A stretch of 40,275 bases of DNA, taken from the NCBI GenBank assembly GCA_964427125.1, contig CAYRSM010000004.1:1-40275 (forward strand), written 5' to 3'. This stretch comes from an uncultured archaeon (GTDB taxonomy: Archaea > Aenigmatarchaeota > Aenigmatarchaeia > CG10238-14 > SCSR01). A model generated the notes under the pieces. That model saw only the letters and a program-made list of their open reading frames with translations, was not told the origin of the DNA and searched no databases. Of this stretch, positions 21,863 through 40,275 are shown piece by piece; position 1 is the first letter of the stretch, and each line of letters begins with the position of its first letter. A program made the position numbers and the translations under genes.

Positions 21863-23044
21863 TTATAAAGATGCCGCCGCCTTCTTCAGCACTTCCGCCT
21901 TGTCTGTCTTCTCCCACGTAAAGTCGGGGTCGTTCCTTCCAAAGTGGCCGTAACATGCAGTCTTCTTGAATATGGGCCTCCTGAGCTTCAGGTCCCTGAT
22001 TATGGCTCCGGGCCTCATGTCAAAGTTCTTCTTCACAATCTCGGTGAGCCTCTCGTCGGGGACCCTCCCCGTGCCGAAGGTGTCAACGTAGACAGAGACT
22101 GGGTGCGCCACACCTATGGCATAGGCTATCTGGACCTCGCACCTCTCGGCAAGTCCGGCAGCGACTATGTTCTTGGCGATGTACCTTGCCATGTAAGAGG
22201 CGGAGCGGTCTACCTTTGTGGGATCCTTGCCGCTGAAACACCCTCCTCCAGACCTTCCCATGGCACCATAACTGTCAACGACTGTCTTCCTGCCCGTTAG
22301 TCCCGAATCTGCCAGTGTGCCGCCTATGACGAACCTCCCAGTGCCATTGACTATGAACTTTGTGTCCTTGCCCATCATCTTCTCCGGGATGACCTGCTTT
22401 ATGACCTTCTCAACGATGTCCTTCCTTACCGTTTCTATGTTCGCGGAATCGCCGTGCTGTGCGGCTATCACCACGGCATTGACATTTACTGGCTTGTCGT
22501 CCACATACTCTACCGTGACCTGCGACTTCCCGTCCGGCCTGAGATAAGGAAGTATCTTCTTTTTCCTGCACTCCGCAAGCCTCATCACGAGCTTGTGGGC
22601 CAGCACTATCGGCAGGGGCATCATCTCCGGGGTCTCGTTGGTGGCATAGCCGAACATAAGGCCCTGGTCGCCCGCCCCTATGTCAAGGCCCTTGCTCTCG
22701 TCAACGCCCCTGGCAATGTCCGGGGACTGCTCCTCTATGGATGTGAGCACCCCGCAGGTCGCCCAGTCCATGCCGTCCTTTGCGTTGTCAAGGCCTATCT
22801 CCTTGAGGGTGTTCCTGACAATGTTCGGGACGTTCACGTAGCTTGTGGTGGTTATCTGCCCCGTCAGGACGGCCATCCCCTGCATTATGAGGGTCTCGCA
22901 GTCCACGTGGGCGTCGGGGTCTTTGGCTATAATTGCATCTAGGATGGAGTCGGAAACCTGGTCAGCCACTGTGGACACGCATTACAGCGTTTTGTCCGGG
23001 TGACCTTCCGCAACGCTCTCTGATGTGAACAGGTATCTCTTCAT
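21863..23044 (-). CDS. metK: S-adenosylmethionine synthetase, bacterial/eukaryotic type, interrupted by a 21-nt intron (exons 23044-22992 and 22970-21863)
   Basis: ATG 23044 gives [18 protein letters not shown], then an insert reading TL*CVST, then VADQVSD. Downstream motifs [15 protein letters not shown] and YGHFG are intact. Spliced product is 386 aa. Confidence 0.93.
22971..22991 (-). other. putative BHB micro-intron in metK mRNA (AACGCTGTAATGCGTGTCCAC)
   Basis: GGAC/GTCC 4-bp helix, bulges AAA and ACA, inner stem ACGC/GCGT with the stop codon in the loop. Cutting after the 2nd nt of each bulge gives GAC AAA GTG GCT. Confidence 0.85.
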
Positions 23045-23047
23045 TGG

Positions 23048-23851
23048 TCAATGCCCCCTTTCAAGGCATTTTTCGTAGTTAATATATTTCCTTCCTAAAT
23101 ATAAATTTGTATCCTTGTAAATCCAGTCGGCCAAGACACTCGCTCTTTTGCATGTGTACGGCAGGCTGAACGTATTTTTATGATGCGTTCTGACTCTGGA
23201 AGAAACACCAATGCTATTTTTCACTGCATTTTCAAGTTTGTCCAAGAATTTCTTAGATCCTGAAAATATGATAATCCTGAAATATGGGCTTCTTTTCCTG
23301 TCGAAGTATGATATACTGCCGTCTCCGTCAATGACGCCTCTGATGAAATCCGGTAGCACTTCTTTTGGTATGTCCGGGAAATCGACTACAAGAGATTTTC
23401 TGGGGATTACACCCAGTTTAATCAGATCTTCGCATATTATCCTGTTCGCAACTGTCAGCCTGTATGATTTTGTTTTGGGCGAGTAGAGAAGCTCCTTGCT
23501 GCTTCCGAGAATGTTTCTTATCCTTTCCAAATGGCTAAAATCTTTCTCGGATTGCGTTATGGTCAGTGTCCAACGGGATTCCTCAGGCTTATAGCTGACA
23601 TTTCCGTCGGTAAAAACAAACCCCAAGATGTAGCTCATCTCCCTTGTAAATTTCTTGAAGAAATGCTCGTTGACTGTGTTTTTCTTAATCTCTATCCCTA
23701 GCTCTTTCCTGTAACGGTTGACCGTAGTCTTCCCGATTTTTAGCTTTCTAGCCATTTCCCGTTCCGATATAACGCCAAAATTGCCACTTATATAATCCAG
23801 ATAAAATGCCTTGTTGTGACCAAACTCCTTACTCAACAGCGTCTGGGCCAT
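23048..23851 (-). CDS. free-standing LAGLIDADG endonuclease with N-terminal HTH
   Basis: YILGFVFTDG and FIRGVIDGDG motifs, EREMARKLKIGKTTVNRY HTH. Lower GC than flanks. Stop lies 3 nt before the metK ATG. Confidence 0.88.
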   Translation of the reverse strand: MAQTLLSKEFGHNKAFYLDYISGNFGVISEREMARKLKIGKTTVNRYRKELGIEIKKNTVNEHFFKKFTREMSYILGFVFTDGNVSYKPEESRWTLTITQSEKDFSHLERIRNILGSSKELLYSPKTKSYRLTVANRIICEDLIKLGVIPRKSLVVDFPDIPKEVLPDFIRGVIDGDGSISYFDRKRSPYFRIIIFSGSKKFLDKLENAVKNSIGVSSRVRTHHKNTFSLPYTCKRASVLADWIYKDTNLYLGRKYINYEKCLERGH

Positions 23852-23891
23852 TGTATAGTAATTGCTGGGTGTGCTTATACGTCTTTCGGGG

Positions 23892-23910
23892 GTTCATTTC
23901 CGGTGAGTTT
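23892..23910 (-). repeat. 19-bp motif AAACTCACCGGAAATGAAC, copy 1
   Basis: Exact match to 38359-38377. Lies 40 nt upstream of the LAGLIDADG ATG. Confidence 0.85.
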
Positions 23911-23980
23911 TGACAACTGGCACTTTCAACATCTCTTATACCGCCCAAAACATGCCTAGAACGGATTTCGGCAGAATTAC

Positions 23981-23994
23981 GTTACATATGTAAC
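23981..23994. promoter_or_regulatory. perfect palindrome GTTACATATGTAAC in an AT-rich divergent promoter region
   Basis: 14-bp palindrome sharing the TACATATGTA core with 27181-27196. Confidence 0.45.
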
Positions 23995-24184
23995 TAATAA
24001 ATTAATTAATTAAATATTTTAATAATAAATGTCATAAATCTGTTTAAGAAACAATTAAATGTGTTTTTATACCTCATATAAACTATTTTCCATATATTTT
24101 ATAACCAAAAAAATGTCAAGTCAATTGTTTCACACAATCCATATATACCACCCAGAGCTAATTACATATTACGAAAAATCCCAA

Positions 24185-24230
24185 GCGCCGGGATCCACCG
24201 ACTTCGAAAGGGGGAGGCGGGTTCCGGTGT
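24185..24230 (+). promoter_or_regulatory. 5'-leader stem-loop of the S-layer gene
   Basis: GCGCCGGGATCC pairs with GGGTTCCGGTGT (with GU pairs), immediately before the AGGTGA RBS at 24241. Confidence 0.55.
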
Positions 24231-24252
24231 TCAAAAAAGTAGGTGAAAAAAA

Positions 24253-26580
24253 ATGAATTTCAAAGAGCTGATTGCCGGTATGCTTAGCTTACTGGTAACC
24301 GGCGCGACTTTCGCGTTCGCCGTTTCGGCGGCGACGACCCTGGACACATATCCGGGGTTCCTAAAGTCAGCCGGTCAGCTCTCTGCCTACGTAGTAGTAG
24401 GATCCGGCGGAACGGATCCAGCAGGACTAGCTAGCGACATTGCCGGTGCGGTCGATATCGCAGTCAGATTGGCTGAGGTGCAGTATGCACCAACGACCGT
24501 GTCTGGCGGTACAACGACGACGGCTGGTTTCAGCGGGCTGGAGAGGGACATACAGGTCCAATCTCCGGTTACGGTGAACGACTCAAACTCTGGTTTCCCA
24601 GGATCACTGCAGAGCTACCACTTCTCCGGCCTCAAGAGGGGCACTGTGACCTTCAACGGTCAGCAGTACAACTATCACGAGGAAGTTGACGTAGGGAGCG
24701 GTGTGCTTGTCGAGCACAACGCATCCGTTAACAATGTCAACGGCACGGAGACTCTGGTTGTCCCTAGCGGCGGATTCACGAACGGAGGCATATCGTACAG
24801 ATTTGTCTTCGACCAGGCCATATCAGGTCTGGGCTCCACGGCAACGCCCAACTACACATACACGCTGACAGTTCCAGTTGCAGGTACGAACATGGTGATA
24901 ACTGGTGTCGACACAGCCGGTTTCTCCGCTTTGGCGGGGAACGTGGGTGTCGCCGACTCCAAGACGCCTATAACCTACAGCGGCTACAGCGTATATGTGC
25001 TTGACGGCTCTTCCGGAAGCTGGGCTAAGATCCAGATAAAGGACGCCTCGGGCAACATTGTCCAGACTGACATACTGAACCTGAACCAGCAGAACACATA
25101 CACGTTCGGCTCCACGACCTTCCAGGTCAGAGTCATAAACGTGTACGCTTCGACCGTGACAAGCACTGCGAGCGCGCAGATAGCTGTGGGTTCGAACGTT
25201 GCAGTTACTTACCCTGCGGGCGAGTCGGTAGACCCGAAGTACCAAGTTGACAGCCAGCCGTGGTACATACATGCACCAACAGGCGGCTATTCGACTGCGG
25301 GTACTCTAGCTGCGGGTAGTTACATAGCTGTTTCGTACGATTCACAGAACACGTCGTACTTCAAGACTGGCACGTATCTGACAGGACCGAACAATTACTT
25401 CTCGTTCGGTGTTGGCGGAATATTGCCGGTCAGCTGGGCAACGATAACTGTCACGCCTGTATCGGCAGGACAGACAGTGTACGCAAGCTCGAGTGCGACT
25501 ACGTCTCTGGCAAACGGCTTGTCGGGCTTCAAGGTGCATTCTGACACAGCGGGAACTATATATCCGGCTGCAACAGCTGGAACATTCAGTCCCTATAGTT
25601 GGCAGGATGCGTACTTGCTGTTCAACACCACCAACACAGGTGGCGGGCTGAACGGCAGTGCGACGTACGCGTTCATAGGACACTATGACACGGCGGCCTC
25701 GAAGATAGTGGTCGATTACAACATATCGGCTGCATTGCCACAACAGGCGGCCTTTAAGTTGCAGTACGGCGGTAGCGGAACAGGAGTATACTATCTGAAC
25801 TTCACGTTGGTCAACAGCACCACCAACGCACTAAATGGAGCATTACTGTATGCTGCTTCAGGTCCAACAAAGACTGGTAGCGCAACATACGTAAACTACA
25901 CTTTCGTGCAGGACAGTGGTGTCACGTGGGGTACTTCGGTAGTTCCGACGTTCCACCTCGGAACCAACAAGGGGTCTGCCGACACAGGCGACCTCGTGAT
26001 GATTTACGAGGGTAACTATCCTGCCGGACAAGTATCGCAGGACCTGCTGACAGACGGCCAGATGATAGTCAAGGCGCCTAACTCGAACGACGCGGCCGAC
26101 ACGGCCGTGTTCCAGATACCTGCAGACCTTGTGAAGGACAAGTATCTGTTCGGTACGTTCGGCGGCACCACGACGACAACCACCACGAGTGGAACTGTCT
26201 ACAGTTTCACAGGCCCGATAACCAGCCCGGTCGCATACCTGGACACGGACATGACGACCGAAAAGAAGGCTGCAAAGGACCTGGTAGTGGTCGGCGGTCC
26301 GTGCATCAACTCCGTCGCTGCTGACGTCCTCGGTCTGACGTACCCGGCGTGCGGTGCGGCCTCGGGCATAACTGCTAACACTGCCATGATAAAGGAAGTG
26401 GACAACAAGTATGCCTCGGGACAGAACATCGTGCTGGTTGCGGGCTGGTCTGCCTCCGACACAAGGTTGGCGGCTGACGTCCTGCAGAACTACGACCAAG
26501 CGACAGTCTCAGGCAAGCTAGTAGGCAAGAGCTCGGTAACGGTAAGCGGTACATCGGTAGCTACGGCTACGATAGCCTAA
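24253..26580 (+). CDS. S-layer protein
   Basis: Signal peptide. N-terminal VVVGS..SDIAGAVDIA and C-terminal LVVVGGPCINSVA..LVAGWSASDT match the archaeal S-layer N/C domains. Thr/Ser/Gly-rich, strong RBS. Confidence 0.88.
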   Translation: MNFKELIAGMLSLLVTGATFAFAVSAATTLDTYPGFLKSAGQLSAYVVVGSGGTDPAGLASDIAGAVDIAVRLAEVQYAPTTVSGGTTTTAGFSGLERDIQVQSPVTVNDSNSGFPGSLQSYHFSGLKRGTVTFNGQQYNYHEEVDVGSGVLVEHNASVNNVNGTETLVVPSGGFTNGGISYRFVFDQAISGLGSTATPNYTYTLTVPVAGTNMVITGVDTAGFSALAGNVGVADSKTPITYSGYSVYVLDGSSGSWAKIQIKDASGNIVQTDILNLNQQNTYTFGSTTFQVRVINVYASTVTSTASAQIAVGSNVAVTYPAGESVDPKYQVDSQPWYIHAPTGGYSTAGTLAAGSYIAVSYDSQNTSYFKTGTYLTGPNNYFSFGVGGILPVSWATITVTPVSAGQTVYASSSATTSLANGLSGFKVHSDTAGTIYPAATAGTFSPYSWQDAYLLFNTTNTGGGLNGSATYAFIGHYDTAASKIVVDYNISAALPQQAAFKLQYGGSGTGVYYLNFTLVNSTTNALNGALLYAASGPTKTGSATYVNYTFVQDSGVTWGTSVVPTFHLGTNKGSADTGDLVMIYEGNYPAGQVSQDLLTDGQMIVKAPNSNDAADTAVFQIPADLVKDKYLFGTFGGTTTTTTTSGTVYSFTGPITSPVAYLDTDMTTEKKAAKDLVVVGGPCINSVAADVLGLTYPACGAASGITANTAMIKEVDNKYASGQNIVLVAGWSASDTRLAADVLQNYDQATVSGKLVGKSSVTVSGTSVATATIA

Positions 26581-26593
26581 AACAACATACTTT

Positions 26594-26633
26594 GAAAAGA
26601 AGCCGAAACGGCTTTCTTTTCTTTCTTTTTCTT
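26594..26633 (+). terminator. hairpin plus T-tract terminator of the S-layer gene
   Basis: AAGCCG-AAA-CGGCTT followed by TCTTTTCTTTCTTTTT. Confidence 0.7.
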
Positions 26634-26731
26634 CGCAACCCCCGAGGTTTTGCTAGGTTTCGGAAATTGTGCATGCTTTCCTGATTGAACGAATATAAGT
26701 CTGCAAACCGCAATGATTAGTGTCCGGTACC

Positions 26732-27103
26732 ATGGGGGTCATAAAGGAGAAGGTAAGGATAAAGGACTCGGAAATCGAGGCGGTTGTTGACACCGGTTCA
26801 GACCATATGGTCGTTGACGAAAATTTTCTTGTGAAGATTGGGCTCAAGCCGGCGAAGCAGGAGTTCGCCTCGTTCGCTGACGAGTCGAGGAAGAAGGTGA
26901 ACGTGTACCTTGAGGACATTGAGATTAGGGGCTGGAAGATACCCGCGGTCGTAATCGTTGGTGGGAGGAAGAACCTTCTGGGTCGTTCTGTCCTGCAGCA
27001 GCTGGGTGCGAAGATTGACCGGGAATCGGACACGATAGCGTACACGAGGCAGCCGACTGGTGCCATTGAAATTACTTGTGTGGAGCTGGATGACAAAAGC
27101 TGA
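26732..27103 (+). CDS. retropepsin-like aspartyl protease
   Basis: AVVDTGS catalytic motif and LLGRSVL. Confidence 0.85.
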   Translation: MGVIKEKVRIKDSEIEAVVDTGSDHMVVDENFLVKIGLKPAKQEFASFADESRKKVNVYLEDIEIRGWKIPAVVIVGGRKNLLGRSVLQQLGAKIDRESDTIAYTRQPTGAIEITCVELDDKS

Positions 27104-27180
27104 TTTTTGTGCGGTTTTTAGCGCATGACGTTTTCCGGGAAAACTTATATGCTGGACAATATAAATGCTTAAATATAACA

Positions 27181-27196
27181 TGATACATATGTATCA
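27181..27196. promoter_or_regulatory. perfect 16-bp palindrome TGATACATATGTATCA (putative operator)
   Basis: Lies between a TATA-like tract and the ATG at 27199. Confidence 0.55.
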
Positions 27197-27198
27197 AA

Positions 27199-27420
27199 AT
27201 GGAAGACGGCGAGATGTTCGTGCTCTCCTACGACATCCCCACCGGAGAGTCGGCGTTCAAGCTGAAGATAAACAGGCTGCTCAGGAAGATGAGGGCGGCC
27301 ATGGCCCAGAGGAGCGTGTGGCAGCATCCCGGGCTGGACGAACTGGTCAGGATTGCGATACTGATAAAGAACGTGGGCGGCAGGGCGAGGATAATGGAGG
27401 AGAGGCTCATCTTCGAGTGA
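27199..27420 (+). CDS. stand-alone Cas2/VapD/PaaX-central-domain-like small protein
   Basis: FVLSYDIP..INRLLRK..QRSVW ferredoxin-like pattern. No cas1 or CRISPR array nearby. Confidence 0.65.
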   Translation: MEDGEMFVLSYDIPTGESAFKLKINRLLRKMRAAMAQRSVWQHPGLDELVRIAILIKNVGGRARIMEERLIFE

Positions 27421-27511
27421 CTGTGTCCGCGCATGTTGCTGCGTGCCGGAAATTTGCCGAAGGGGCCAACCAAGCGCGATTTTTATTTAAACCCAGCCAT
27501 CTTAATTATTG

Positions 27512-28198
27512 ATGATGTCCGTGATACTGTTCGGCCCGCACGGCGCGGGGAAGGGCATACAGGCCGAGCTCATAGCAAAGCACTACAGCATACCCCACGT
27601 CTCGACGGGAGACATCTTCAGGGGCATAGCAAAGGACCCGTCCAAGGTGCGCTACCTTCCGAAGGAGCTTGGGGAGGCGATAAGGGACACACTGGCAAGA
27701 AATGAGTATGTTTCGGACGACATAACCAACCGCGTTGTGGAGTACAGGCTTTCGCACGGCGACTGCAAGGACGGCTTTGTCCTGGACGGCTATCCCAGGA
27801 CCACACAGCAGGCAAAGGCTCTGGATTCGCTCATGTCAAAGCTGGGCAAAAAGGGGTACATCGTCGTCAATTTTGCAAACCTCAGCGACGACCTGCTTGT
27901 GAAGAGGCTGCTGCACAGGGTCATCTGCCCGAAGTGCGGGGCGTCCTACAACACCCTGCTGAACCCGCCGAAGAAGAGTGGCGTGTGCGACGCGTGCGGC
28001 TCGGCCCTTACAAAGCGCTCCGACGACACCGACGAAGGGATAAGGAGCAGGAACAGGGAGTACGAGACGAAAGCAAAGCCCCTGCTCGGCTACTACAGGA
28101 GGAAGGGCGTGGTGGTGGACGTGGATGCCTCCAGGAAGCCCGAGGAGGTATTTAAGGACATCAGGGTAATCTTGGATAACAGGGGGACGGAAGCATGA
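27512..28198 (+). CDS. adk: adenylate kinase (bacterial type, Zn-LID)
   Basis: GPHGAGKG, STGDIFR, LDGYPRT, CPKC..CDAC, RSDD motifs. Confidence 0.93.
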   Translation: MMSVILFGPHGAGKGIQAELIAKHYSIPHVSTGDIFRGIAKDPSKVRYLPKELGEAIRDTLARNEYVSDDITNRVVEYRLSHGDCKDGFVLDGYPRTTQQAKALDSLMSKLGKKGYIVVNFANLSDDLLVKRLLHRVICPKCGASYNTLLNPPKKSGVCDACGSALTKRSDDTDEGIRSRNREYETKAKPLLGYYRRKGVVVDVDASRKPEEVFKDIRVILDNRGTEA

Positions 28199-28737
28199 TG
28201 GAGAAGACACTTGTCGTTGTGAAGCCGGACGGCATGAAGAGGAACATGGTGGGTAAGATTCTCGCAAGGCTGGAGGAGAACGGCCTGAAGGTGATAGGGA
28301 TGAAGCTTGTGAAGGTTGACAGGAAGCTGGCCGCGAAGCATTACACCGATTCAGATGCCCAAGTAGTGGGTATGGGAAACAAGACGCTCAGCTCCGGCGG
28401 CCCCGAAAAGGCCAGGCAGCTCTTCGGCACGGACGACCCGAAGAAGATAGGGATGATGCTCAGGGAGTGGATGATAGACTTTATAACATCGGTGCCGGTC
28501 GCTGCATTCGTTCTGGAGGGCGAGGACGCCGTGAAGAATGTGAGGAAGATTGTGGGTTTCACCGACCCGGTCAGGGCCGAGAAAGGCACCATAAGGGGCG
28601 ACCTGGGCGCCGACAGCATAGCAAAGGCCAACGAGGAAAGGAGGGCCACCGAGAACCTTGTCCACGCCTCGGGCTCGGCAGAAGAGGCGGCGAGCGAGAT
28701 AAGGCTGTGGTTCAGGGACAATGAAGTCTTCCAGTAA
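28195..28737 (+). CDS. ndk: nucleoside-diphosphate kinase
   Basis: EKTLVVVKPDG, GTIRGD, NLVHASGS motifs. Overlaps the adk stop. Confidence 0.93.
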   Translation: MMEKTLVVVKPDGMKRNMVGKILARLEENGLKVIGMKLVKVDRKLAAKHYTDSDAQVVGMGNKTLSSGGPEKARQLFGTDDPKKIGMMLREWMIDFITSVPVAAFVLEGEDAVKNVRKIVGFTDPVRAEKGTIRGDLGADSIAKANEERRATENLVHASGSAEEAASEIRLWFRDNEVFQ

Positions 28738-28813
28738 ATTTCTGCCGCATTCGGGAAAAATTAATAAGCTTGCTCGGCAAAACAATTAAATCAACAGGAG
28801 CTCAAAATCCAAA

Positions 28814-30943: not shown

Positions 30944-30992
30944 AAAACCTAATAAGAATTAATCCAGCGCCAGCCTTAAGCTTGAGCATAGT

Positions 30993-31175
30993 CTACCCGT
31001 AGTGCCCTTCCATGAGTACGCCTGCTATCTTGAATATCGCGGAGACGGCCAGCACGGCTGACAGTACGAAAAGAATCTCCCTCGGCAGCCAGAAAAAGTT
31101 GAAGAGGATCACGGCCGCCGCTCCCAGTTGCGTCAATCCAATCAGCGCGTCGAACATAGTCTGTTTATATCTCAC
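30993..31175 (-). CDS. small 2-TM membrane protein
   Basis: Two hydrophobic helices. Start may instead be ATG 31157. Confidence 0.5.
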   Translation of the reverse strand: MRYKQTMFDALIGLTQLGAAAVILFNFFWLPREILFVLSAVLAVSAIFKIAGVLMEGHYG

Positions 31176-31250
31176 GAATTGAGCTTTGCTATTCTTAAGT
31201 TTTTCTGTATATAATCATATAAATCGTTTTTAAGAAACAAACGCACAGTC

Positions 31251-32174: not shown

Positions 32175-32210
32175 GAAAATCAGTTGGCAGGCGGAGTTAA
32201 AATGCTTTGC

Positions 32211-32468
32211 CTACAGCGTGCAGAATACAGAAGCTATCAGGATGATTACGCCGATTGACAGCCATATCTTGATCAGCACGTCGCCAGCGAACGATGCGAA
32301 CACACCGATAAGAGGCATTTTTGTAAGCCTTGAAATGACGAAGAACACAGCCAGTATAGAAACATAGCCAACTACAGAGTACGCAACAGGTGCAAGCCCG
32401 GGTACAGCCGACTTCCAGAGCGGAGCCAGCAGCAGCCACGTGAGAGTGTCACAAACCGCCATATGCAT
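32211..32468 (-). CDS. small membrane protein
   Basis: 85-aa hydrophobic ORF filling the gap between dys and argS. Confidence 0.5.
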   Translation of the reverse strand: MHMAVCDTLTWLLLAPLWKSAVPGLAPVAYSVVGYVSILAVFFVISRLTKMPLIGVFASFAGDVLIKIWLSIGVIILIASVFCTL

Positions 32469-32525
32469 CCAAATAGATATTTCTCCTGAAACGGCTTTAA
32501 GCTTGATTTTTACAAAGACTAGATT

Positions 32526-34199
32526 ATGCTAAAGTCGGAAGTCGCGGGGCTGCTGAAGTCTGCTGGTGTGGATACTACAGAGGATAAGCTGGAGATTCCG
32601 CCGCAGGACGACTTTGGAGATGTCTCTTTCCCCTGCTTCGAGTTCAGCAAAGCGCAGAAGAAGAACCCCAACGAGATTGCAAAGTCGATAAGGGAAAGGA
32701 TAGTAATACCAAAGTCCTCGGCTGTTGCCCGCGTGGACGTGAAGGCAGGGTATGTGAACTTCTTCTTCGACTGGGGGAAGGTTGCTGGCGGCCTTCTGGG
32801 CGAGATTTCCAGGAAGGGAGGCGATTACGGAAAGTCCGACATGGGCAAGGGCAATGTCGCGATAGTGGATTATTCCTCCCCCAATCCCGTCCATCCGATA
32901 CATGTGGGGAGCGCGAGGAGCACCCTCATAGGCGAGTCGCTCTGCCGGATACTTGAGGAGGCTGGCTACGACGCGAAGAGGCTGCTTTTCATCAACGACC
33001 TCGGAAGGCAAGTGGCGATACTGCTCTGGCACTACCTGAAGCACATGAAGGGCGCAAAGCCCGACAAGAAGGAGGACCACTGGCTGCTGGACATCTATGT
33101 GAAGGCGAACAAGGAGCTGAAGGACAACCCGGAGTATGAGAGGGAGGTCGAGCAGACCCTGAACAAGTGCGAGTTCGGCGACAAGGACATGATGGCCGTC
33201 TTGAGGACGATAGTGGAGTGGTGCCTGAGCGGCTTTGGCAAGACATATGAGACACTCGGAATAAAGTTCGACGAGCGCATCTGGGAGAGCAGTTTTGTGG
33301 AAAAGGCAAAGCTGTACGTCTCGAGCCTTCTGAGGGACAAGGCGGCCTTTACAACGGCCGACGATGCGGTGGTCATAGACCTTGAGAGGTACGGCATGCC
33401 CAGCACCGTGATACTGAGGCGCGACGGGACGACTCTTTATCTGACAAGGGACGTGGCTGCGAGCATATACAAGATTGAGAAGTACAAACCGACCCTGAAC
33501 GTCTATGTGGTTTCCGAGGAGCAGAGCCTCCACTTCAGGCAGGAGTTCAAGGTCCTGGAGCTTCTCGGCTACAAGAGCTACGTCTCCAACAGCCACCATC
33601 TGGCTTTCGGCTACGTCTCTCTCCCGGAGGGCAAGATGAGCTCAAGGCTTGGGAGGGTTGTGCTTCTGGACGACCTGATAGACGAGGCTACCTCAAAGGT
33701 GAAAGAGAAGTTCGATGTGTCCGATGAGAAGGTCGCCCGCGCAATAGGGCTGGGTGCGGTCATATATTCCATACTCAAGGTGGAGGCGAAGAAGCAGGTC
33801 ATGTTCAGGTGGGAGGATGTCCTCAGCCTGGAGGGGAACTCGGCGCCCTACGTGCAGTACGCCTATGCGAGGTGCTGCAGCATACTCGAGAAGGCGGGCG
33901 ATTGGGACAGGAAGTTTTCCGCAGGCAAACTAACCGTCCAAGAGGAGAAGCTGCTGAAGGCGCTGGTCTCGTTCGGCGACGTGGCGAGGCAGGCCGCGAG
34001 AGAGCTGAGGCCGGACATAATGTGCAACTACGCCTTTGAGCTGGCGACAAGGTTCAACACCTTCTACCAGTTCTGTTCTGTGTTAAATGCTGACAGCGCG
34101 GAGACGAAGAACTTCAGGCTAATTCTTGTGGAGTCGGTTAAGACGGTGCTTGGGATTGTGCTCGGCTTGCTAGACATAGAGAAGGTGGAAAAGGTCTAG
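32526..34199 (+). CDS. argS: arginine--tRNA ligase
   Basis: SSPNPVHPIHVG (HIGH), KMSSR, YVQYAYAR motifs. Confidence 0.96.
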   Translation: MLKSEVAGLLKSAGVDTTEDKLEIPPQDDFGDVSFPCFEFSKAQKKNPNEIAKSIRERIVIPKSSAVARVDVKAGYVNFFFDWGKVAGGLLGEISRKGGDYGKSDMGKGNVAIVDYSSPNPVHPIHVGSARSTLIGESLCRILEEAGYDAKRLLFINDLGRQVAILLWHYLKHMKGAKPDKKEDHWLLDIYVKANKELKDNPEYEREVEQTLNKCEFGDKDMMAVLRTIVEWCLSGFGKTYETLGIKFDERIWESSFVEKAKLYVSSLLRDKAAFTTADDAVVIDLERYGMPSTVILRRDGTTLYLTRDVAASIYKIEKYKPTLNVYVVSEEQSLHFRQEFKVLELLGYKSYVSNSHHLAFGYVSLPEGKMSSRLGRVVLLDDLIDEATSKVKEKFDVSDEKVARAIGLGAVIYSILKVEAKKQVMFRWEDVLSLEGNSAPYVQYAYARCCSILEKAGDWDRKFSAGKLTVQEEKLLKALVSFGDVARQAARELRPDIMCNYAFELATRFNTFYQFCSVLNADSAETKNFRLILVESVKTVLGIVLGLLDIEKVEKV

Positions 34200-34298
34200 T
34201 CAGTTTTTGAATGTCCATTAATTTTCAAATCATTTTGCTTGTGTAGAACGTTCTACATCGGCATCAAAAACTGTGAAGCAAGTATACGCAGGAAAATT

Positions 34299-34832
34299 TT
34301 ATTCTAGCGGAAAATCTTCGACAACCGTATAGACGGGCCCCTCGCTGGAAAGTTCGCTCTTTATCAGCTGTATGCTATTTACATCGAAGCTTCCCGCATC
34401 GTACCCCATCAGCGGCGCGATAAGTTCTAGGAACTGTTTCTTGTCCGGTATGTTCTTCACCCTGCAGAGAGTTGCATGTGCCTTGTAGGAGTCGCCGCCC
34501 ACGATTTTCCTTACGTTGAGCCTGAGTCTTTCCAGCTCGCCGGTATTGTCGTGCGTGTCCAGGGCGATGACCCTTATGAACTTCTCGTTGGGTATGAACA
34601 TGATGCCCTTCACGTCTACGGAAAACCGCTTCATCCCCGTCACTGCCATCTTTGTCTTCTCCGATATGCCCTCCAAGTCCTCCACATCGCCGAGGAAGGA
34701 GAGCGACAGATGGAGATTTTCCCTCTCGACCAGCTTGCACTGCGCGCCCGTCCCGACAATCTTCTTCTGAAGGCTTTCGATGCCGTCCTTGAGACCCTCG
34801 GGAATCATGATTCCGATGAAGCATCTGACCAT
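34299..34832 (-). CDS. thpR: RNA 2',3'-cyclic phosphodiesterase (2H family, LigT/ThpR)
   Basis: MVRCFIG, HLSLSFLG and HATLCR 2H motifs, SELSSEGPVY. Confidence 0.9.
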   Translation of the reverse strand: MVRCFIGIMIPEGLKDGIESLQKKIVGTGAQCKLVERENLHLSLSFLGDVEDLEGISEKTKMAVTGMKRFSVDVKGIMFIPNEKFIRVIALDTHDNTGELERLRLNVRKIVGGDSYKAHATLCRVKNIPDKKQFLELIAPLMGYDAGSFDVNSIQLIKSELSSEGPVYTVVEDFPLE

Positions 34833-34868
34833 AAGTAAAATATAGGGCTGGGAAAATAAAGTATAATC

Positions 34869-36143
34869 ATGCCGACTTTCAACCTGGACTACTCCGTCCT
34901 CGCCGAGATAGCCCTCGCGCTCGCGCTGGGCGCCCTCGTGGGGATAGAAAGGGAGTTCCACAGGACCGTGGAGAAGAAGGTCAACTATTTGGGGGTGAGG
35001 ACATCAATGCTCCTTTCGCTTTTGGGGTTCATCTTCGGCAACATCTATGCCAGCACAGTCAACAGCCCCCTGGTGCTGATTGCGGCATTCGGAATCATAA
35101 CAGTCATCTCATCCCTAGTTTATTGGGCGAAGTTCATGCTGCACAAGGCGGCCGGCGCGACCACCTACACGGCGATGTTCCTGGTATTCATGGGCGGCGT
35201 CATGGTGGGGCTTGGCCTGGCGTTCCTTGCGGCGATAGTCATAATCATAGCCACCAGCCTGCTGGCGGTCAAGGAGGAGTTCGCGGAGTTCGTGATAATC
35301 CTCAACAAGAACGAGATTCTCTCCGCAATAAAGTTCGCGATAATAGCCTTCGTAATCCTTCCGTTTCTGCCGAACAGGACCCTGGACCCTTGGAACGTTT
35401 TCAACCCATTCTCCTTCTGGCTCATAGTGGTCGTTTTCTCGTCGATAAACTTTGCGTCGTTCATACTTTCCAAGGTACACAAAGAAGGCCTCTTCCTCGG
35501 CAGCCTGACCGGCGGCTTTGTGAGCAGCAGCGCCGTGACATACAGCCTGGTAAGGATGTTCGGCAAGCGCGAGGTCGACCATAAGACAACTCTGGCTGGC
35601 ATACTTGTGTCGGACGTGGGGATGATACTCTCGCAGGTCCTTATTATATCGCTGCTGGTCTACGGAAACGTATCAGTGCTCAGGTACATATTTATACCAG
35701 TCGCGGTGCCTGCCCTCCTGCTGGTGGCGTATTCGCTGATGCTGGGCAGGAGGCCGGTGAAGAGGATAACGATGGAGTCGCCTTTCTCGCTGAAATCTGC
35801 TCTCACGTTCGCGCTGCTTTTCTTCCTCATAAGCATACTCTCGCTTGTCTTCAAGGACAGCGCCGGCCAGTCCTCGCTGTATGCACTGTCAGTGATATCA
35901 AGCATAGCGAACGTAGGCGCCACCGTCGCTTCCATGGGCCTCCTCGCAGCGGGCGGGGTGATAAGCCTGAAGATGTTCGGCCTCCTGACGATAATCTCCA
36001 TGGCTGTGGGCATGATGAGCAAGCTGGTCTGGATATTGGGCCACAAAAACAGGGGGATGCTGAGGAAAGTACTTGTACCAAGCGTCCTGCTGAGCGCGCT
36101 GTCAATCGCCCTTTACTTCGCCCAGTTCCTTTTCATTGGGTAA
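34869..36143 (+). CDS. MgtC/SapB + DUF4010 membrane protein
   Basis: LGALVGIERE, GVRT, LPFLPN, GGFVSSSAVT motifs. Confidence 0.88.
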   Translation: MPTFNLDYSVLAEIALALALGALVGIEREFHRTVEKKVNYLGVRTSMLLSLLGFIFGNIYASTVNSPLVLIAAFGIITVISSLVYWAKFMLHKAAGATTYTAMFLVFMGGVMVGLGLAFLAAIVIIIATSLLAVKEEFAEFVIILNKNEILSAIKFAIIAFVILPFLPNRTLDPWNVFNPFSFWLIVVVFSSINFASFILSKVHKEGLFLGSLTGGFVSSSAVTYSLVRMFGKREVDHKTTLAGILVSDVGMILSQVLIISLLVYGNVSVLRYIFIPVAVPALLLVAYSLMLGRRPVKRITMESPFSLKSALTFALLFFLISILSLVFKDSAGQSSLYALSVISSIANVGATVASMGLLAAGGVISLKMFGLLTIISMAVGMMSKLVWILGHKNRGMLRKVLVPSVLLSALSIALYFAQFLFIG

Positions 36144-36176
36144 ACCTTTATATTGGAAGCTGACGATATTTAATCT

Positions 36177-36440
36177 ATGGCAGAAACAAGGGTCAGGGCG
36201 GGAGAGGTAGTCGGCAAGACTGTCATAAGTTCTGAGAGCGGGCGCAAGTTCGGCGTTGTCGGGAACATAGACTTTATCACCGAAAGCGGGGAGCTCCTGA
36301 ACATAGTGGTCGAACAGCCTACAAAGCACCTGCTCGACATGAACCTGAAGGCAGACGACAAGGGAAGGCTGCTGGTCCCGTTCTCCGCCGTAAAGTCCGT
36401 CGGGGACTTTGTGGTCGTGAGCGAGGCAGACCTTGTATAA
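36177..36440 (+). CDS. PRC-barrel protein (CdpB-like)
   Basis: GKTVIS..GRKFGVV..VPFSAVKSVGDFVVV. Confidence 0.85.
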   Translation: MAETRVRAGEVVGKTVISSESGRKFGVVGNIDFITESGELLNIVVEQPTKHLLDMNLKADDKGRLLVPFSAVKSVGDFVVVSEADLV

Positions 36441-36504
36441 GGCGTCTCAGGCGCAGCATATCAACAGTTTTGAATAATTCTTTCCCTAAGAAAAACTTTT
36501 TCCG

Positions 36505-37497
36505 TCAGAACCAGATGGACCGCACCTCGTCTACCCTCCATTTGGGTGTTATCTTTTCCGTAAAGTCTGGTTTCCATCCCGACCTGTGCGCCAGCATGCC
36601 GGTCCAAGCTATCATCGCGCCCTGATCGCCACTGTACTCGGTAGGGACAATGTGTACCTTCGCTCCCCTTTCCTCGGCCATGACACCGACCATCTCCTGA
36701 AGCCTCTTGTTTGCCGCAACGCCGCCCACAAGCAATACCTCCTTCTTTTCCGTGTGCGCGAGCGCCCTCTCCACGACCTCTGTGAGCATCGCAAAGCACG
36801 TCTCCTGCAGCGAGAAGGCTACGTCCTCCCTGACCGCACCTTTCTTCAGCAGCTTTATCGCGGCGGTCTGTATACCGCTGAATGAGGTGTCCATACCCTT
36901 CACAACATAAGGAAGCTCTATGTATTTCCCCTTTATTGCCAGCCTTTCAATCTCCGGGCCCCCCGGCATGGGAAGCTTCATCTCCCTGGCAACGACATCG
37001 AAACAGTTTCCCACGGGGACGTCTTCAGTTTCACCAAACACTCTAAAAAAATTTTCTGCATACGCAACCACCATCGTGTTGCCGCCGCTCAGGTAGAGGT
37101 AGACCGGGTCTTTTGTGTTTGTCATGAGCCGCCCGATTTCTAAGTGTGCGACTGAGTGGTTCACTGGAATTAGCGACTTTTTGTGCAACTTTGACAGGTT
37201 GATTGCAAAATCTGCTCCCTTGTTGAGGCAGGGAGGCAACCCCGGTCCAGCGGAGTAGCTTAGAATGTCGATGCCATCCCAACCGAGACCAGACTTTTCC
37301 AAAGCTCGATTTAATATTTTTTCTCCGACTGCTTGGTGGTGCGCCGCGGCCTCGTGCGGGATGATTCCCTTGCCCAAGGCTGGCCTGTACATATCGCGTT
37401 CATTAGCCAAGATTTTCCCGTCTTCCGTCACTATGCCGATGCCGAAGGTGTGTGCCGTACTTTCTATGCCGAGGCACACTAGTTTGCCGTCTAGCAT
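36505..37497 (-). CDS. kae1: tRNA t6A synthase Kae1 (KEOPS complex)
   Basis: LGIESTAHT, HSVAH, SGGNT, GGVAAN, DQGAMIA motifs. Confidence 0.95.
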   Translation of the reverse strand: MLDGKLVCLGIESTAHTFGIGIVTEDGKILANERDMYRPALGKGIIPHEAAAHHQAVGEKILNRALEKSGLGWDGIDILSYSAGPGLPPCLNKGADFAINLSKLHKKSLIPVNHSVAHLEIGRLMTNTKDPVYLYLSGGNTMVVAYAENFFRVFGETEDVPVGNCFDVVAREMKLPMPGGPEIERLAIKGKYIELPYVVKGMDTSFSGIQTAAIKLLKKGAVREDVAFSLQETCFAMLTEVVERALAHTEKKEVLLVGGVAANKRLQEMVGVMAEERGAKVHIVPTEYSGDQGAMIAWTGMLAHRSGWKPDFTEKITPKWRVDEVRSIWF

Positions 37498-37544
37498 AAA
37501 TAACAAGTGAGATTTGCCTGTTTAAGATTTTAATAAAAAAGGAG

Positions 37545-37657
37545 TGGGACGGAGGAGATTTGAACTCCCAACACTTCCCGGGTCTTTCAGACCTATCGGT
37601 CTTCAGCATCAACGGACTCTCGTCCTCGATTGCTCTCCCGGATTGAGCTACCGTCCC
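37545..37657 (-). tRNA. tRNA-Phe(GAA) with two non-canonical BHB introns (37608-37626 at 30/31; 37575-37594 at 43/44)
   Basis: Acceptor GGGACGG/CCGTCCC, D-stem GCTC/GAGC, T-arm GGGAG-TTCAAAT-CTCCT. Removing 19+20 nt gives a 74-nt cloverleaf with ATCGG-CTGAAGA-CCGAT. Confidence 0.9.
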
Positions 37658-37676
37658 CTAACATAATAAGCCATTT

Positions 37677-38315
37677 TCATTTTGAAGAACTTATAATTTC
37701 ATAAGCTTTTCGCAGCTTGCGAGGATTTGAAAAACCGATATCTGATAGCCATTTTTTAATCATTTTCATGCCATAGAGAGCTATCTTGTAAGTCTTGGTT
37801 CCGTATCTTTTGTCGATGTAGTGTCTAGTTCGAATTCTGTATCCTCTGGCAGTCAACACTTCGGTTAATTGCAGTGCCAAATTTTGGCTCGTGGTTGTTA
37901 TTTCCAGACTCGGATAGTTGGGACTTCCCGCTTTTTGAGAGGTGAATATTGAACCGTCTGTGTCGGCGATTCCCCTTATGATGTATTTTAATTTTTTCCA
38001 GTTCTTCAAAAACATCGTGGGTATGCGTATTGTGAAACATTTTCCCTCTCCGACGGGCAAGCCAATCTCATCAATAAGCGAAGTTATCAATGTCTTTGAA
38101 TGGAGTCTCAGTCTCAAGCCGCCGGAATAAGTTTTGATTTGCGGGCGCTTTTTCGCTACATGAAAAATGATATTGCTTATGTGGTCGAAATATTTCATGT
38201 CTGTTTTGGGATTGCCTGTAATCATCAGGACATACTTCGAGCCATTTCTAAAGTATATGTTTCCGTCACCGATTGTTATTCCTATCAGTTCGCAAAGTTC
38301 TTTTGTAACTAACAT
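37677..38315 (-). CDS. free-standing LAGLIDADG endonuclease
   Basis: ELIGITIGDG and IIRGIADTDG motifs, C-terminal IGFSNPRK, low GC. Ends 19 nt before tRNA-Phe. Start ATG 38315 or GTG 38342. Confidence 0.88.
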   Translation of the reverse strand: MLVTKELCELIGITIGDGNIYFRNGSKYVLMITGNPKTDMKYFDHISNIIFHVAKKRPQIKTYSGGLRLRLHSKTLITSLIDEIGLPVGEGKCFTIRIPTMFLKNWKKLKYIIRGIADTDGSIFTSQKAGSPNYPSLEITTTSQNLALQLTEVLTARGYRIRTRHYIDKRYGTKTYKIALYGMKMIKKWLSDIGFSNPRKLRKAYEIISSSK

Positions 38316-38358
38316 ACCTGAAATAACTATGGCACGAAACACTATCCCCTTTTGGGGT

Positions 38359-38377
38359 GTTCATTTCCGGTGAGTTT
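38359..38377 (-). repeat. 19-bp motif AAACTCACCGGAAATGAAC, copy 2
   Basis: Exact match to 23892-23910. Lies 43 nt upstream of ATG 38315. Confidence 0.85.
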
Positions 38378-38410
38378 ATGTGTAACAGAAAAAGCTATTT
38401 CTGGCTTATT

Positions 38411-39082
38411 TTAACCTTTTATCCTGTACTTCAGACCCTCGGCTACTATGAAAAGCAGCACGCCGAAGAACATCTTTGCGAACTTTGGTACCTTCCTCCT
38501 TCCGTAACTCACGTGCACCGGCACCTGGCGGACTTTCAGCCTGCCCCTCACACAGTCCGCGAATATGGAGTTCTCGATTATGTACCCACCGTGGATGTGT
38601 TTTATTTTGGGCAGCGCTTCGCGTCTCACCCCGATGTAGCCGCAGTTTGTGTCTTTGAAGCTTGCCCCGAAAAACATGTTGAACAGAGACCTCCACGCAA
38701 AGTTTCCCATCCTGTTGGCGTAGGGTATCTCCGAGGGAATCCTGTAGCCGGTCACGACGTCATAACCTTCTTCCAGACCTTTGACAATCTTATCAGAGTC
38801 TTCCAGCCCGTATTGCATGTCGGCATCTACGACAAGTATGCAGTCGATGTCGCTTTTCTGAAAAAATGCGAATCCAGTTTTTAGCGCCTCGCCCTTCCCT
38901 CTGTTGTTTTCGTGCCTAAGTACAATCGCGCCGGACCTTTTGGCGATATTGTAAGTATCATCGCCGGAGCCGTCGTCTATGACAAGTATTTTTGAGCTCG
39001 GCCAATGTCTCCTGCACTCTCGGATTGCTGTGACTATGTTCTTTCCCTCGTTGTACGCCGGAAGCAGGATGCCGATTTTCAT
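38411..39082 (-). CDS. glycosyltransferase family 2 (DPM1-like)
   Basis: LPAYNE, IDDGSGD, NRGKG, DAD, DTNCGY motifs. Confidence 0.92.
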   Translation of the reverse strand: MKIGILLPAYNEGKNIVTAIRECRRHWPSSKILVIDDGSGDDTYNIAKRSGAIVLRHENNRGKGEALKTGFAFFQKSDIDCILVVDADMQYGLEDSDKIVKGLEEGYDVVTGYRIPSEIPYANRMGNFAWRSLFNMFFGASFKDTNCGYIGVRREALPKIKHIHGGYIIENSIFADCVRGRLKVRQVPVHVSYGRRKVPKFAKMFFGVLLFIVAEGLKYRIKG

Positions 39083-39171
39083 TAAACATATTTCATTTTT
39101 GATAGGTACATAAAGCCCGAACAATGAGCTTATATGTTTGCGAGATTATTATTAATGGGTAAGTGCTTAAT

Positions 39172-40275
39172 ATGCCAGAAGTAAATCTTCCTGATGATGG
39201 ACGGATTGCTTTTGCAGACGGATTCGGTAAAAAATTGTTCGAGGAGGTATGCACTGTCAATTCTACGACGTTGAAAAATTTGTGCGCCGAGTTGGGTGTT
39301 AGCTACTTCACACTTAAAAAATGGAAATCGGGTGACTGCCTTGTGCCGGGTCGCATTGTCAACGCTCTTTTGGGCAAGTTGCCCCGCGACACACAAAAAC
39401 AATTTCTCACTAACATAAGAAGTGTCAAGGAACACAATTGGGGAAGTTCTTTGGGAGGCAGGATTTCTTTTTCAAGAGCACCAAAAAGCCTGAGGATGAA
39501 AAGGTTGCGTAGGATGTGGAAGGCTAACAGGATAATATTCAAGTCCCGAGTACCAAGGGTGAAGGTCAACAAGGATTTCTATTATCTGTTGGGCGTGCTT
39601 ATGGGGGATGGTTGCATATCCAAATTTTACTCAAACAGCAAGCGGTGTTTCATTTATGAGACGTCTTTGGTCGGACATAGGACTGATGACATGGAGTTTT
39701 ACACATCGACAATTATACCATTGTTCGCTAAGATATTTCGCACCAATTTGAAGGTCAGGTTCAGGAAAAACGAGAACGCCATCTCCCTGAGCACTACACG
39801 CAGATTCATTTTCGATGTCTTGAAAAAATACGGCATGCCTGTGGGCCTTAAAACAGGTATGAAGTTGGGTAGAACGGCCATGAAATTGCCGCATACATGC
39901 CTGTACAAGATAATCCGAGGACTGTTCGACACAGATGGTACTTTGGCGGCGCGCAAGGATGAAAAATACAGATACCCTTACATAATGATTACAAATTACA
40001 ATTGCGACTTGCGAAATCAAATAAAATCGTTGCTGAGGGGGGCTGGAATGCCTGCCTATATTCATGCCAACGACATAGTTGTCAGAGGGAAGGAAAATGC
40101 TACCAAGTGGATGAAATTAATAGGTACATCCCACCCTATACCTAAATTAAGATACGAGACATGGTTGGGCACAGGGAAACTGTTGCCTAACAGGGCCGAT
40201 GGTCTAATTGGCATGACCCGGGAGAATGAAACCGCATTCGCAAGGCGGAAGCTAGGGGTTCAAATACACGTCGGT
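39172..40275 (+). CDS. LAGLIDADG endonuclease with N-terminal HTH, open at the window end (absent from ORF track)
   Basis: Manual translation from ATG 39172 gives LCAELGVSYFTLKKWKSG (HTH), YLLGVLMGDG, IIRGLFDTDG and IGTSHP. No stop before 40275; the frame runs into the tRNA gene. Confidence 0.85.
   Translation, partial: MPEVNLPDDGRIAFADGFGKKLFEEVCTVNSTTLKNLCAELGVSYFTLKKWKSGDCLVPGRIVNALLGKLPRDTQKQFLTNIRSVKEHNWGSSLGGRISFSRAPKSLRMKRLRRMWKANRIIFKSRVPRVKVNKDFYYLLGVLMGDGCISKFYSNSKRCFIYETSLVGHRTDDMEFYTSTIIPLFAKIFRTNLKVRFRKNENAISLSTTRRFIFDVLKKYGMPVGLKTGMKLGRTAMKLPHTCLYKIIRGLFDTDGTLAARKDEKYRYPYIMITNYNCDLRNQIKSLLRGAGMPAYIHANDIVVRGKENATKWMKLIGTSHPIPKLRYETWLGTGKLLPNRADGLIGMTRENETAFARRKLGVQIHVG
40193..40275 (+). 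tRNA. tRNA-Ala(CGC), intron-containing, truncated by the window edge
   Basis: GGGCCGA-TG-GTC..GAC, anticodon arm CCGCA-TTCGCAA-GGCGG (one mismatch), AGGGG-TTCAAAT. 13-nt insert at 40218-40230 (position 25/26). The 3' T-stem is not visible. Confidence 0.65.

Follow-up and report, generated by a model that had tools for sequence, protein, structure and literature searches.

Free-standing LAGLIDADG endonuclease genes beside bulge-helix-bulge micro-introns in a DPANN-type archaeon: a candidate archaeal form of collaborative homing

Endonuclease genes and interrupted neighbours in the window

The contig CAYRSM010000004.1 (40,275 nucleotides (nt), hereafter called the window) is the complete contig C4 of the 1.2-Mb genome of a DPANN-type archaeon (88 contigs, completeness estimate 90%), whose relatives possess genomes of 0.3-1.2 Mb. 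An earlier note on this DNA had proposed that three LAGLIDADG endonuclease genes lie directly 5' of metK, tRNA-Phe and tRNA-Ala, and that they form a homing system together with short bulge-helix-bulge (BHB) introns in these neighbours. The three open reading frames (ORFs) and the interruption of the three targets were confirmed, and all three ORFs pass the Pfam cut-off. In the following, G000 denotes the genome under study, further G numbers denote other genomes, L numbers denote compared loci, and HEG stands for the endonuclease gene, which is either present (HEG+) or absent (HEG-). The cut-off for the LAGLIDADG family PF14528 was 22.5 bits. The features of the three loci are listed below with coordinates, strand and basis.

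21863..22970; -; metK exon 2 (bacterial-type S-adenosylmethionine synthetase); three Pfam MetK domains match
22971..22991; -; metK 21-nt BHB micro-intron; separates HPDK from VADQ and contains a TAA in frame
22992..23044; -; metK exon 1; ATG 3 nt past the stop codon of the endonuclease gene
23048..23851; -; free-standing LAGLIDADG endonuclease gene; PF14528 39.1 bits, PF00961 25.4 bits
23892..23910; -; 19-nt motif, core CTCACCGGAAA; upstream of the metK-linked endonuclease ORF
37545..37657; -; tRNA-Phe(GAA) with two BHB introns; ARAGORN -i, RF00005 41.3 bits, orthologue comparison
37608-37626; -; tRNA-Phe intron 1, 19 nt, position 30/31; comparison with the intronless orthologue in G014
37575-37594; -; tRNA-Phe intron 2, 20 nt, position 43/44; comparison with the intronless orthologue in G014
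37677..38315 (or 38342); -; free-standing LAGLIDADG endonuclease gene; PF14528 30.7 bits
38359..38377; -; second copy of the 19-nt motif in the window; upstream of the tRNA-Phe-linked endonuclease ORF
39172 (or 39163)..40192; +; free-standing LAGLIDADG endonuclease gene, its frame continuing into tRNA-Ala; PF14528 35.5 bits
40193..40275; +; tRNA-Ala, partial (anticodon loop reads CGC); by eye against the intronless tRNA-Ala of L189
~40219-40231; +; 13-nt insert in tRNA-Ala at the junction of D arm and anticodon stem; by eye, called by no program

The interruption of metK is visible already in the Pfam match, as S-AdoMet_synt_N is matched only from profile position 17 onwards, while the absent N-terminus, ending with GHPDK, is encoded upstream of the insert. 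In the minimum free energy (MFE) structure calculated with RNAfold, a 4-bp helix (GGAC/GTCC) is flanked on both sides by a 3-nt bulge, with an outer helix at one end and a hairpin at the other. A cut after the second bulge nucleotide on both sides restores HPDK-VADQ, and metK without the intron shows the frame and the motif of the uninterrupted orthologues in G001, G010 and G024. The adjacent endonuclease comprises 267 amino acids, with a stretch resembling a helix-turn-helix (HTH) at the N-terminus and two LAGLIDADG motifs ending with TDG and GDG. From the end of its gene to the metK intron the distance is 56 nt, and from the end of the tRNA-Phe-linked endonuclease gene to the first tRNA-Phe intron it is 50 nt, so that both distances given in the earlier note agree with the coordinates. 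The same holds true for the low G+C content (GC) described there, which was measured as 0.38-0.45 in the three LAGLIDADG genes (0.38-0.44 in the metK-linked one) compared to 0.50-0.60 in the flanks. The stretch is present in runs of a mine-drainage metagenome, and no RNA run was among those listed as containing it. In four DNA runs, all from one sample, contigs extend from metK across its intron into the endonuclease gene, and no alternative allele was seen; these metagenome contigs are not independent of the assembly.

The tRNA-Phe gene was missed by ARAGORN with default settings and by Rfam at the gathering threshold. Its first intron forms a clean BHB when folded by hand, with H2 of CAAT/GTTG and H3 of GGAC/GTCC. 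The endonuclease gene is located between a glycosyltransferase gene and tRNA-Phe, and the same synteny was found without the endonuclease gene in eight other genomes. At the end of the window, the tRNA-Ala-linked ORF (39163/39172-40275, +) has no stop codon before the contig end. The frame enters the tRNA as described in the earlier note, and the 13-nt insert, likewise described there, was read by eye against the L189 orthologue, with no call by any program. Because of the inserts in nearly all tRNA genes of this genome, most of these genes escape tRNA finders with default settings; default ARAGORN gave no tRNA in the window, and ARAGORN -i gave 29 in the whole genome, some of which are doubtful.

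To the remainder of the window, the earlier note had attributed no BHB insert. A Pfam scan of 30 further ORFs gave matches for 21, none of which was split or truncated at the 5' end, in line with this statement.

Free-standing LAGLIDADG genes in the whole genome

The search of the genome with PF14528 resulted in 20 matches, of which 15 were marked as exceeding the cut-off and one more passed together with its neighbours. There were 14 free-standing ORFs of 166-463 amino acids, three matches within frames of 992-1225 amino acids, which are read as inteins, one match in a 16S rRNA intron and one weak match with a stop codon. The 16S rRNA fragment in question, on contig C73, has at least two inserts, one of them encoding the LAGLIDADG protein. 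All 14 free-standing genes have the same orientation as the next gene and overlap it or precede it by no more than 117 nt. The co-orientation described in the earlier note for three genes extends to every free-standing copy in the genome.

The neighbours of the 14 ORFs are eight tRNAs and six protein genes. If tRNAs account for about 3% of the genes, a tRNA beside 8 of 14 has by our own arithmetic a probability of about 2e-9. Five of the eight tRNA-adjacent frames stop inside the D loop of the tRNA. Among the six protein genes, four (metK, aIF2-gamma, a P-loop gene and RtcB) are interrupted in an active-site motif by a micro-intron, each with BHB geometry and each introducing an in-frame or frame-shifting stop. 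The three micro-introns outside the window are as follows.

aIF2-gamma; 24 nt, GH/VSHGKT; BHB by hand, H2 TCGG/CCGA
P-loop gene (cyclic-diphosphoglycerate-synthetase-like); 18 nt, GAAGRD/FHCFN; textbook BHB in the MFE fold
RtcB; 20 nt, PDMHFGY/GFPIGGV, ~270 nt into the gene at G000:C60:4043-5520; relaxed BHB, 3 bp and one mismatch

Removal of these introns restores frame and motif, as judged from 13 uninterrupted orthologues for aIF2-gamma, from G002 for the P-loop gene and from 11 uninterrupted orthologues for RtcB. Compared to the four of six endonuclease-adjacent protein genes, none of the 20 other evaluable genes of the window showed an active-site micro-intron (Fisher 0.001).

For splicing, the assembly contains one EndA locus (PF01974, 84.8 bits) and one RtcB locus. 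Since the sole RtcB locus found is itself BHB-interrupted, production of the ligase would need pre-existing ligase. On this reading, the enzyme that seals BHB exons would itself be made from a BHB-interrupted message.

Two LAGLIDADG motifs ending with D or E were determined in all 14 free-standing proteins, both by regular expression and by reading of the sequences; in the aIF2-gamma-linked endonuclease the first motif reads GDN. The identity among the 14 proteins amounts to only 20-35%. Judged by these motifs, the catalytic sites of the nucleases look intact. The catalytic acidic residues, which WhiA has lost, are retained here, and the 14 proteins are therefore not WhiA-like. The motifs thus speak against the inactive WhiA-like regulators that the earlier note had named as a refuting case. 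A sequence search of the PDB gave weak matches (2dch, 'putative homing endonuclease', E 0.003; a ribosomal S3 chain, 1.7e-5).

A different architecture, with the endonuclease ORF enclosed in a BHB formed by its own 5' untranslated region and 3' end, was rejected, as the duplexes were no better than those of shuffled sequences in 10 of 10 cassettes (z -2.2 to +1.6). Small-RNA genes were sought with Rfam (E <=1) in the 117 nt that precede psmA and at the C22 and C17 loci, with a single tRNA match, at C17, as the result.

Targets and distribution of the endonuclease types

Orthologues of the endonucleases were sought in hundreds of other genomes by homology of the endonuclease alone, ignoring the context. 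None of 69 genomes from the organism's own family contains the metK type, but five from other families do, with an identity of 50-54%. In all four evaluated loci (L151-L154) it lies directly 5' of metK, whose start follows after 20-26 nt; L155, where the endonuclease gene has an in-frame TAG, was left out of the evaluation. L153 comprises a 30-nt BHB intron in metK at exactly the position determined in G000. The bacterial-type metK is itself patchily distributed and was matched in 8 of 41 related genomes.

In L151 (G272) and L154 (G348), two HEG+ loci from different families, metK shows one extra T, which results in CCY-TGA-C inside HPDK, and the frame is open for 367 residues past this T. The sequence resembles a +1 frameshift site. 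For the extra T, recoding, another way of breaking the endonuclease site and a pseudogene are conceivable. In addition, two LAGLIDADG inteins are predicted from split matches within a 1143-amino-acid frame of metK in G003 (contig C62).

The RtcB type, which was taken from a one-genome-per-species collection, comprises 12 loci with 44-69% identity from several DPANN phyla, with record titles including Micrarchaeota, Aenigmatarchaeota and Nanoarchaeota. RtcB follows directly 3' in 11 of them; the same motif of these RtcB genes contains a micro-intron in seven cases, is uninterrupted in three and is masked in one (L149). G042, a genome of the own family (65% identity), shows the same gene order and the RtcB intron. 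Two intron sites can be distinguished in the motif, as RtcB is split at Y/G in type-1 and at H/S in type-2; they are 9 nt apart and are accompanied by orthologous endonucleases. All nine RtcB contexts that were folded showed a bulge-helix-bulge (z of -0.6 to -4.6 compared to shuffles).

The remaining protein-gene types are rarer. For aIF2-gamma, two orthologues were found in 370 genomes, both in other families and none in the 69 genomes of the own family. Each of the two overlaps the beginning of aIF2-gamma, in which a 30-31-nt intron occupies the same site. The P-loop-gene type is likewise absent from the 69 genomes of the own family and occurs in three to five genomes of other families. Its three orthologues (38-43% identity) all lie 5' of the P-loop gene, which has 17-24-nt introns at GRD/FHNF. 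One of these loci, L183, was considered as a case of an intron-encoded endonuclease and rejected, as exon 1 is overlapped by the ORF, which stops at the 3' end of the intron. In a sister species (L110, G001:C22), a 329-amino-acid ORF takes the place of the endonuclease gene upstream of the P-loop gene; by our own reading of the sequence, its N-terminus appears reverse-transcriptase-like. The final 21 codons before the start of the P-loop gene are conserved between L110 and G000.

In the case of the tRNA-Phe type, the seven closest homologues (39-51% identity) are all located at tRNA-Phe, three as free-standing genes 5' of it, one inside an intron in sense orientation (L164) and three inside an intron in antisense orientation (L160, L161, L165). 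More distant homologues lie 5' of tRNA-Thr. Within genus g12, G130 possesses both the endonuclease gene and the tRNA-Phe intron, and its congener G014 possesses neither. Both orthologues of the tRNA-Ala type (L188 and L189, 36-37% identity) lie 5' of tRNA-Ala, and both orthologues of a type beside a class-II tRNA (contig C8), from another genus and from another family, lie 5' of the same kind of tRNA. Among 34 loci examined in relatives, LAGLIDADG genes inside introns were found in six tRNA and six rRNA cases.

Since rare and patchily distributed endonuclease genes stay beside one target gene across distant genomes, the pattern has the signature of homing. It is assumed with good confidence that these genes are target-specific mobile endonuclease cassettes.

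In relatives, the motifs that carry the micro-introns, or neighbouring ones, are also occupied by other elements. In L060 (G002:C13), a LAGLIDADG intein is located in the P-loop of aIF2-gamma at GK/TTL, five codons from the intron site, and RtcB comprises LAGLIDADG inteins at GFDIN/C and GYGF/C in L134 (G022) and L135 (G043), the GYGF/C site being that of G043.

Co-occurrence of endonuclease genes and micro-introns

For the four protein genes, the loci were counted by presence of the endonuclease gene and of the micro-intron. The numbers are given as loci with intron/loci without intron.

RtcB: HEG+ 9/3; HEG- 2/11
metK: HEG+ 2/3; HEG- 2/3
aIF2-gamma: HEG+ 3/0; HEG- 2/13
P-loop gene: HEG+ 4/0; HEG- 1/1
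Four protein genes pooled: HEG+ 18/6; HEG- 7/28

The counts leave aside RtcB of G024, G006, G005 and G019, aIF2-gamma of G013, for which the regular expression of the motif failed, as well as L155 and L149. Accordingly, an intron is present in 18 of 24 HEG+ loci compared to 7 of 35 HEG- loci, with a one-sided Fisher P of 3.2e-5, which changes to 3.4e-4 without the four loci of G000 and amounts to 0.004 for RtcB alone; all of these values are optimistic because the genomes compared are kin, which weakens the case for the pairing. For tRNAs, co-occurrence does not discriminate, because nearly all tRNAs here have introns anyway. For the association of endonuclease gene and intron put forward in the earlier note, the test was thus positive at the protein genes.

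In the sister species, every combination was seen at the four loci of G000 except an endonuclease gene beside an uninterrupted site. This fits a course of events in which introns can pre-exist and the endonuclease settles only beside an interrupted, and hence immune, copy, to be lost afterwards faster than the intron; the order of these events is one that we infer.

Upstream motif and further observations

The two copies of the 19-nt motif in the window belong to a larger set. The motif is near-invariant, lies about 55 nt before the ORF starts and is followed by a stretch resembling a transcription factor B recognition element (BRE) and TATA box. It precedes most of the free-standing LAGLIDADG genes, and copies elsewhere in the genome include G000:C20:11379-11397(-), C32:11801-11819(+) and C17:874-892(+). 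The four genomes of the genus contain 14, 8, 5 and 18 sites, while none was found in 37 other genomes searched. Besides LAGLIDADG genes, the motif also precedes the genes for NreA, a PD-(D/E)XK nuclease, a Zn-ribbon protein, a 246-amino-acid protein of unknown kind and a 531-amino-acid HTH protein, and may be the mark of a regulon for nucleases or repair.

Many cassettes of motif and endonuclease gene lie less than 2 kb from contig ends (C3:441, C17:874, C22:1793, C29:777, C32:230, C40:459, C68:709), and the same was observed in G001 and G003. These positions point to breaks of the assembly at elements that are repeated or polymorphic.

In L018 (G002:C163), a 17-nt near-copy of the tRNA 5' end is located upstream of the endonuclease promoter, and the complete tRNA, with an insert in the D loop, follows downstream of the endonuclease gene. 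The duplicate may be the footprint of one-sided repair. No orphan duplicated 5' gene fragments were found upstream of the 13 cassettes checked in G000.

Apart from the endonuclease loci, the window comprises a nucleoside-diphosphate kinase gene with an in-frame insertion of about 30 amino acids (28375-28474, +), which splits its Pfam match. In the metagenome contigs, strain variants are clustered in the same stretch, at 28347-28452.

Proposed mechanism and alternative explanations

The observations can be combined into the following model. A cassette consists of a promoter-proximal motif and a LAGLIDADG ORF, is specific to one conserved host gene and lies immediately 5' of this target. The most conserved DNA of the host gene, either an active-site motif or the tRNA body, is interrupted by a BHB micro-intron, which the EndA and the RtcB ligase of the cell would remove from the RNA. 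In cassette-free genomes, the enzyme would cut the uninterrupted target, and repair from the cassette-bearing copy would install the endonuclease gene and, where the conversion tract reaches it, also the nearby intron. The intron, or another change at the site, would split the recognition sequence and so protect the carrier. The cut site, the immunity conferred by the intron and the co-conversion of endonuclease gene and intron are elements that we infer, and the intron as immunity is plausible but unproven. The co-occurrence counts and the presence of two independent intron sites in RtcB support a role of the intron. Altogether, homing cassettes with the micro-intron as immunity and as co-travelling partner are regarded as the probable explanation, albeit with reservation. 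Of the homing by an endonuclease/micro-intron pair that the earlier note had postulated, target-specific mobility, intact motifs and co-occurrence at protein genes are retained, whereas the pair does not simply travel together. A further-reaching version, in which a 'split mobile intron' would be widespread in DPANN archaea, with an active-site BHB micro-intron (RtcB, MetK, aIF2-gamma, tRNAs) and a 5' LAGLIDADG endonuclease driving both into naive genomes, and with site breaks of the CCY-TGA-C type as alternative immunity, is put forward tentatively and is somewhat more doubtful.

A number of findings weigh against a part of the introns in this process. They fit an explanation in which the endonucleases home target-specifically to the 5' flanks with no involvement of the introns, micro-introns being common at conserved permissive sites and co-occurrence resulting from ancestry and sampling. 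Introns with no endonuclease gene next to the target are known for all four protein loci, namely in seven HEG- loci (aIF2-gamma of G012 and G016, RtcB of G009 and G017, the P-loop gene of G001, and metK of G002 and G003, there at the same site as in G000), and the tRNA-Phe intron at 30/31 also occurs in four other genera, all of them without the endonuclease gene. From the sequence, the endonuclease gene at tRNA-Phe would be a later insertion into the conserved synteny of glycosyltransferase gene and tRNA-Phe. Conversely, intron-free targets exist beside endonuclease genes: metK of L152 is uninterrupted, RtcB is uninterrupted in L141, L143 and L148, where the motif has diverged (MSDGHEGYG or SDAHQGYGAC), the tRNA-Thr genes of L168, L169 and L173 and the tRNA-Ala of L189 are intronless, and in G000 itself psmA and a methyltransferase gene have no insert. 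About 80% of the tRNAs of the genome carry inserts, irrespective of an endonuclease neighbour. A sliding-window comparison showed no local excess of identity of the kind expected for a co-conversion tract in aIF2-gamma or RtcB, for which the divergences are large. In addition, a genome-wide scan for BHB geometry combined with merging of ORFs gave 869 hits compared to 853-862 in mis-registered controls, and because hits match controls it provides no background rate of micro-introns in mRNAs. On the other side, an explanation that leaves the introns uninvolved has to account for the excess of introns in HEG+ protein loci, for the RtcB motif, where introns lie at two independent positions and both are accompanied by orthologous endonucleases, for the location of introns exactly in those active-site motifs that inteins of relatives target too, and for genus g12, where the genome with the endonuclease gene has the tRNA-Phe intron while the one without it is intronless. 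Taken together, it is considered unlikely, though with a chance that is not small.

The micro-introns could also be historical remnants of large BHB introns that once contained the endonuclease, the ORF having been relocated or kept upstream while the intron shrank, so that the present arrangement would reflect descent instead of cooperation. The tRNA-Phe endonuclease lineage, found both within tRNA-Phe introns and free-standing 5' of the tRNA, is in accordance with this idea, as are the LAGLIDADG genes in tRNA and rRNA introns of relatives and the duplicated tRNA 5' fragment upstream of the endonuclease gene at G002:C163. However, no protein-gene intron encoding an endonuclease was found, the ORF of L183 only overlapping exon 1 and intron, no simple rearrangement takes an intron ORF to the 5' flank, and the intact catalytic motifs together with the patchy spread point to present activity. 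Such a history is therefore held to be improbable. Even less can be said for domesticated LAGLIDADG-derived regulators or maturases, which would control their neighbour or help in its splicing and would share a promoter motif with DNA-repair genes. The occurrence of the 19-nt motif before NreA, PD-(D/E)XK nuclease and Zn-ribbon genes, the N-terminal HTH-like regions in several copies and the conservation of the RtcB-linked form across phyla could be explained in this way. Yet both catalytic acidic residues are present in all 14 copies, and both the low GC and the patchiness are in accordance with a selfish element. Moreover, since relatives have the same introns with no adjacent LAGLIDADG gene, the protein is not needed for splicing. 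Domestication is thus regarded as very improbable, and homing cassettes with an involved micro-intron remain the preferred explanation.

Comparison with known systems

The idea of a collaborative homing pathway is reportedly due to Bonocora and Shub. Among the known systems, it is phage homing of this kind, collaborative or in trans, that the arrangement resembles most in its logic. Two papers describe F-CphI with the psbA intron and mobE with the I-TevIII intron, with an endonuclease-less group I intron nearby (PMC6083498, PMC2790892). The endonuclease gene is found outside the intron of a neighbouring conserved gene in both settings, and the proposed logic of cutting the intronless allele with the intron conferring immunity would be shared. 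Differences concern the host, the enzyme and the intron. The present cases belong to cellular archaea, and the candidate enzymes are of the LAGLIDADG family, while those of the phages are Endo VII-like or HNH enzymes. Instead of the ribozyme introns described there, BHB introns of 17-36 nt that would be spliced by proteins are present, and the targets include tRNAs as well as mRNAs. By analogy, the arrangement can be regarded as an archaeal version of phage collaborative homing, with BHB introns.

With the archaeal rRNA and tRNA BHB introns of the I-DmoI type, which encode LAGLIDADG endonucleases, the arrangement has the family of the enzyme and the mode of splicing in common. Unlike these, the 14 cases described here have the ORF outside and 5' of an intron that is too short to encode anything, and because of this external ORF they do not fall into the intron-encoded class. 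LAGLIDADG inteins, which occur in the same or neighbouring motifs in relatives (the P-loop of aIF2-gamma, GYGFPIGG of RtcB), differ in that they are excised from the protein and contain the endonuclease themselves. With WhiA-type regulators, the proteins have the free-standing LAGLIDADG fold and an HTH region in common.

Among protein genes, the known precedent is the cbf5 pre-mRNA of Crenarchaeota, with a BHB intron whose length is described as insufficient for a homing endonuclease gene (PMC2738675). Compared to this case, the present introns are found in metK, aIF2-gamma, RtcB and a P-loop gene of DPANN archaea, with a candidate endonuclease encoded next door. Since the endonuclease can be encoded beside the interrupted gene, the objection that short introns are too small to encode one is removed. 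For tRNA introns of Asgard archaea, a 2026 preprint, in which copying, mobile elements and reverse transcription were tested, leaves the route of arrival open. The findings bear on how short archaeal BHB introns reach non-canonical tRNA positions and, occasionally, mRNAs, and the proposed mechanism, if true, would be a route at the DNA level for the entry of non-canonical BHB introns into both. Furthermore, four protein-coding genes are added to those with predicted BHB introns, including the ligase needed for splicing, and a set of natural LAGLIDADG enzymes is offered whose targets, located in universally conserved motifs, can be predicted.

In the full-text literature, with subscription-only articles and supplementary files lying outside the search, no description of free-standing LAGLIDADG genes beside BHB micro-introns was found. 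By comparison with the phage systems, a free-standing LAGLIDADG endonuclease beside a BHB micro-intron would accordingly represent a new, archaeal form of collaborative homing.

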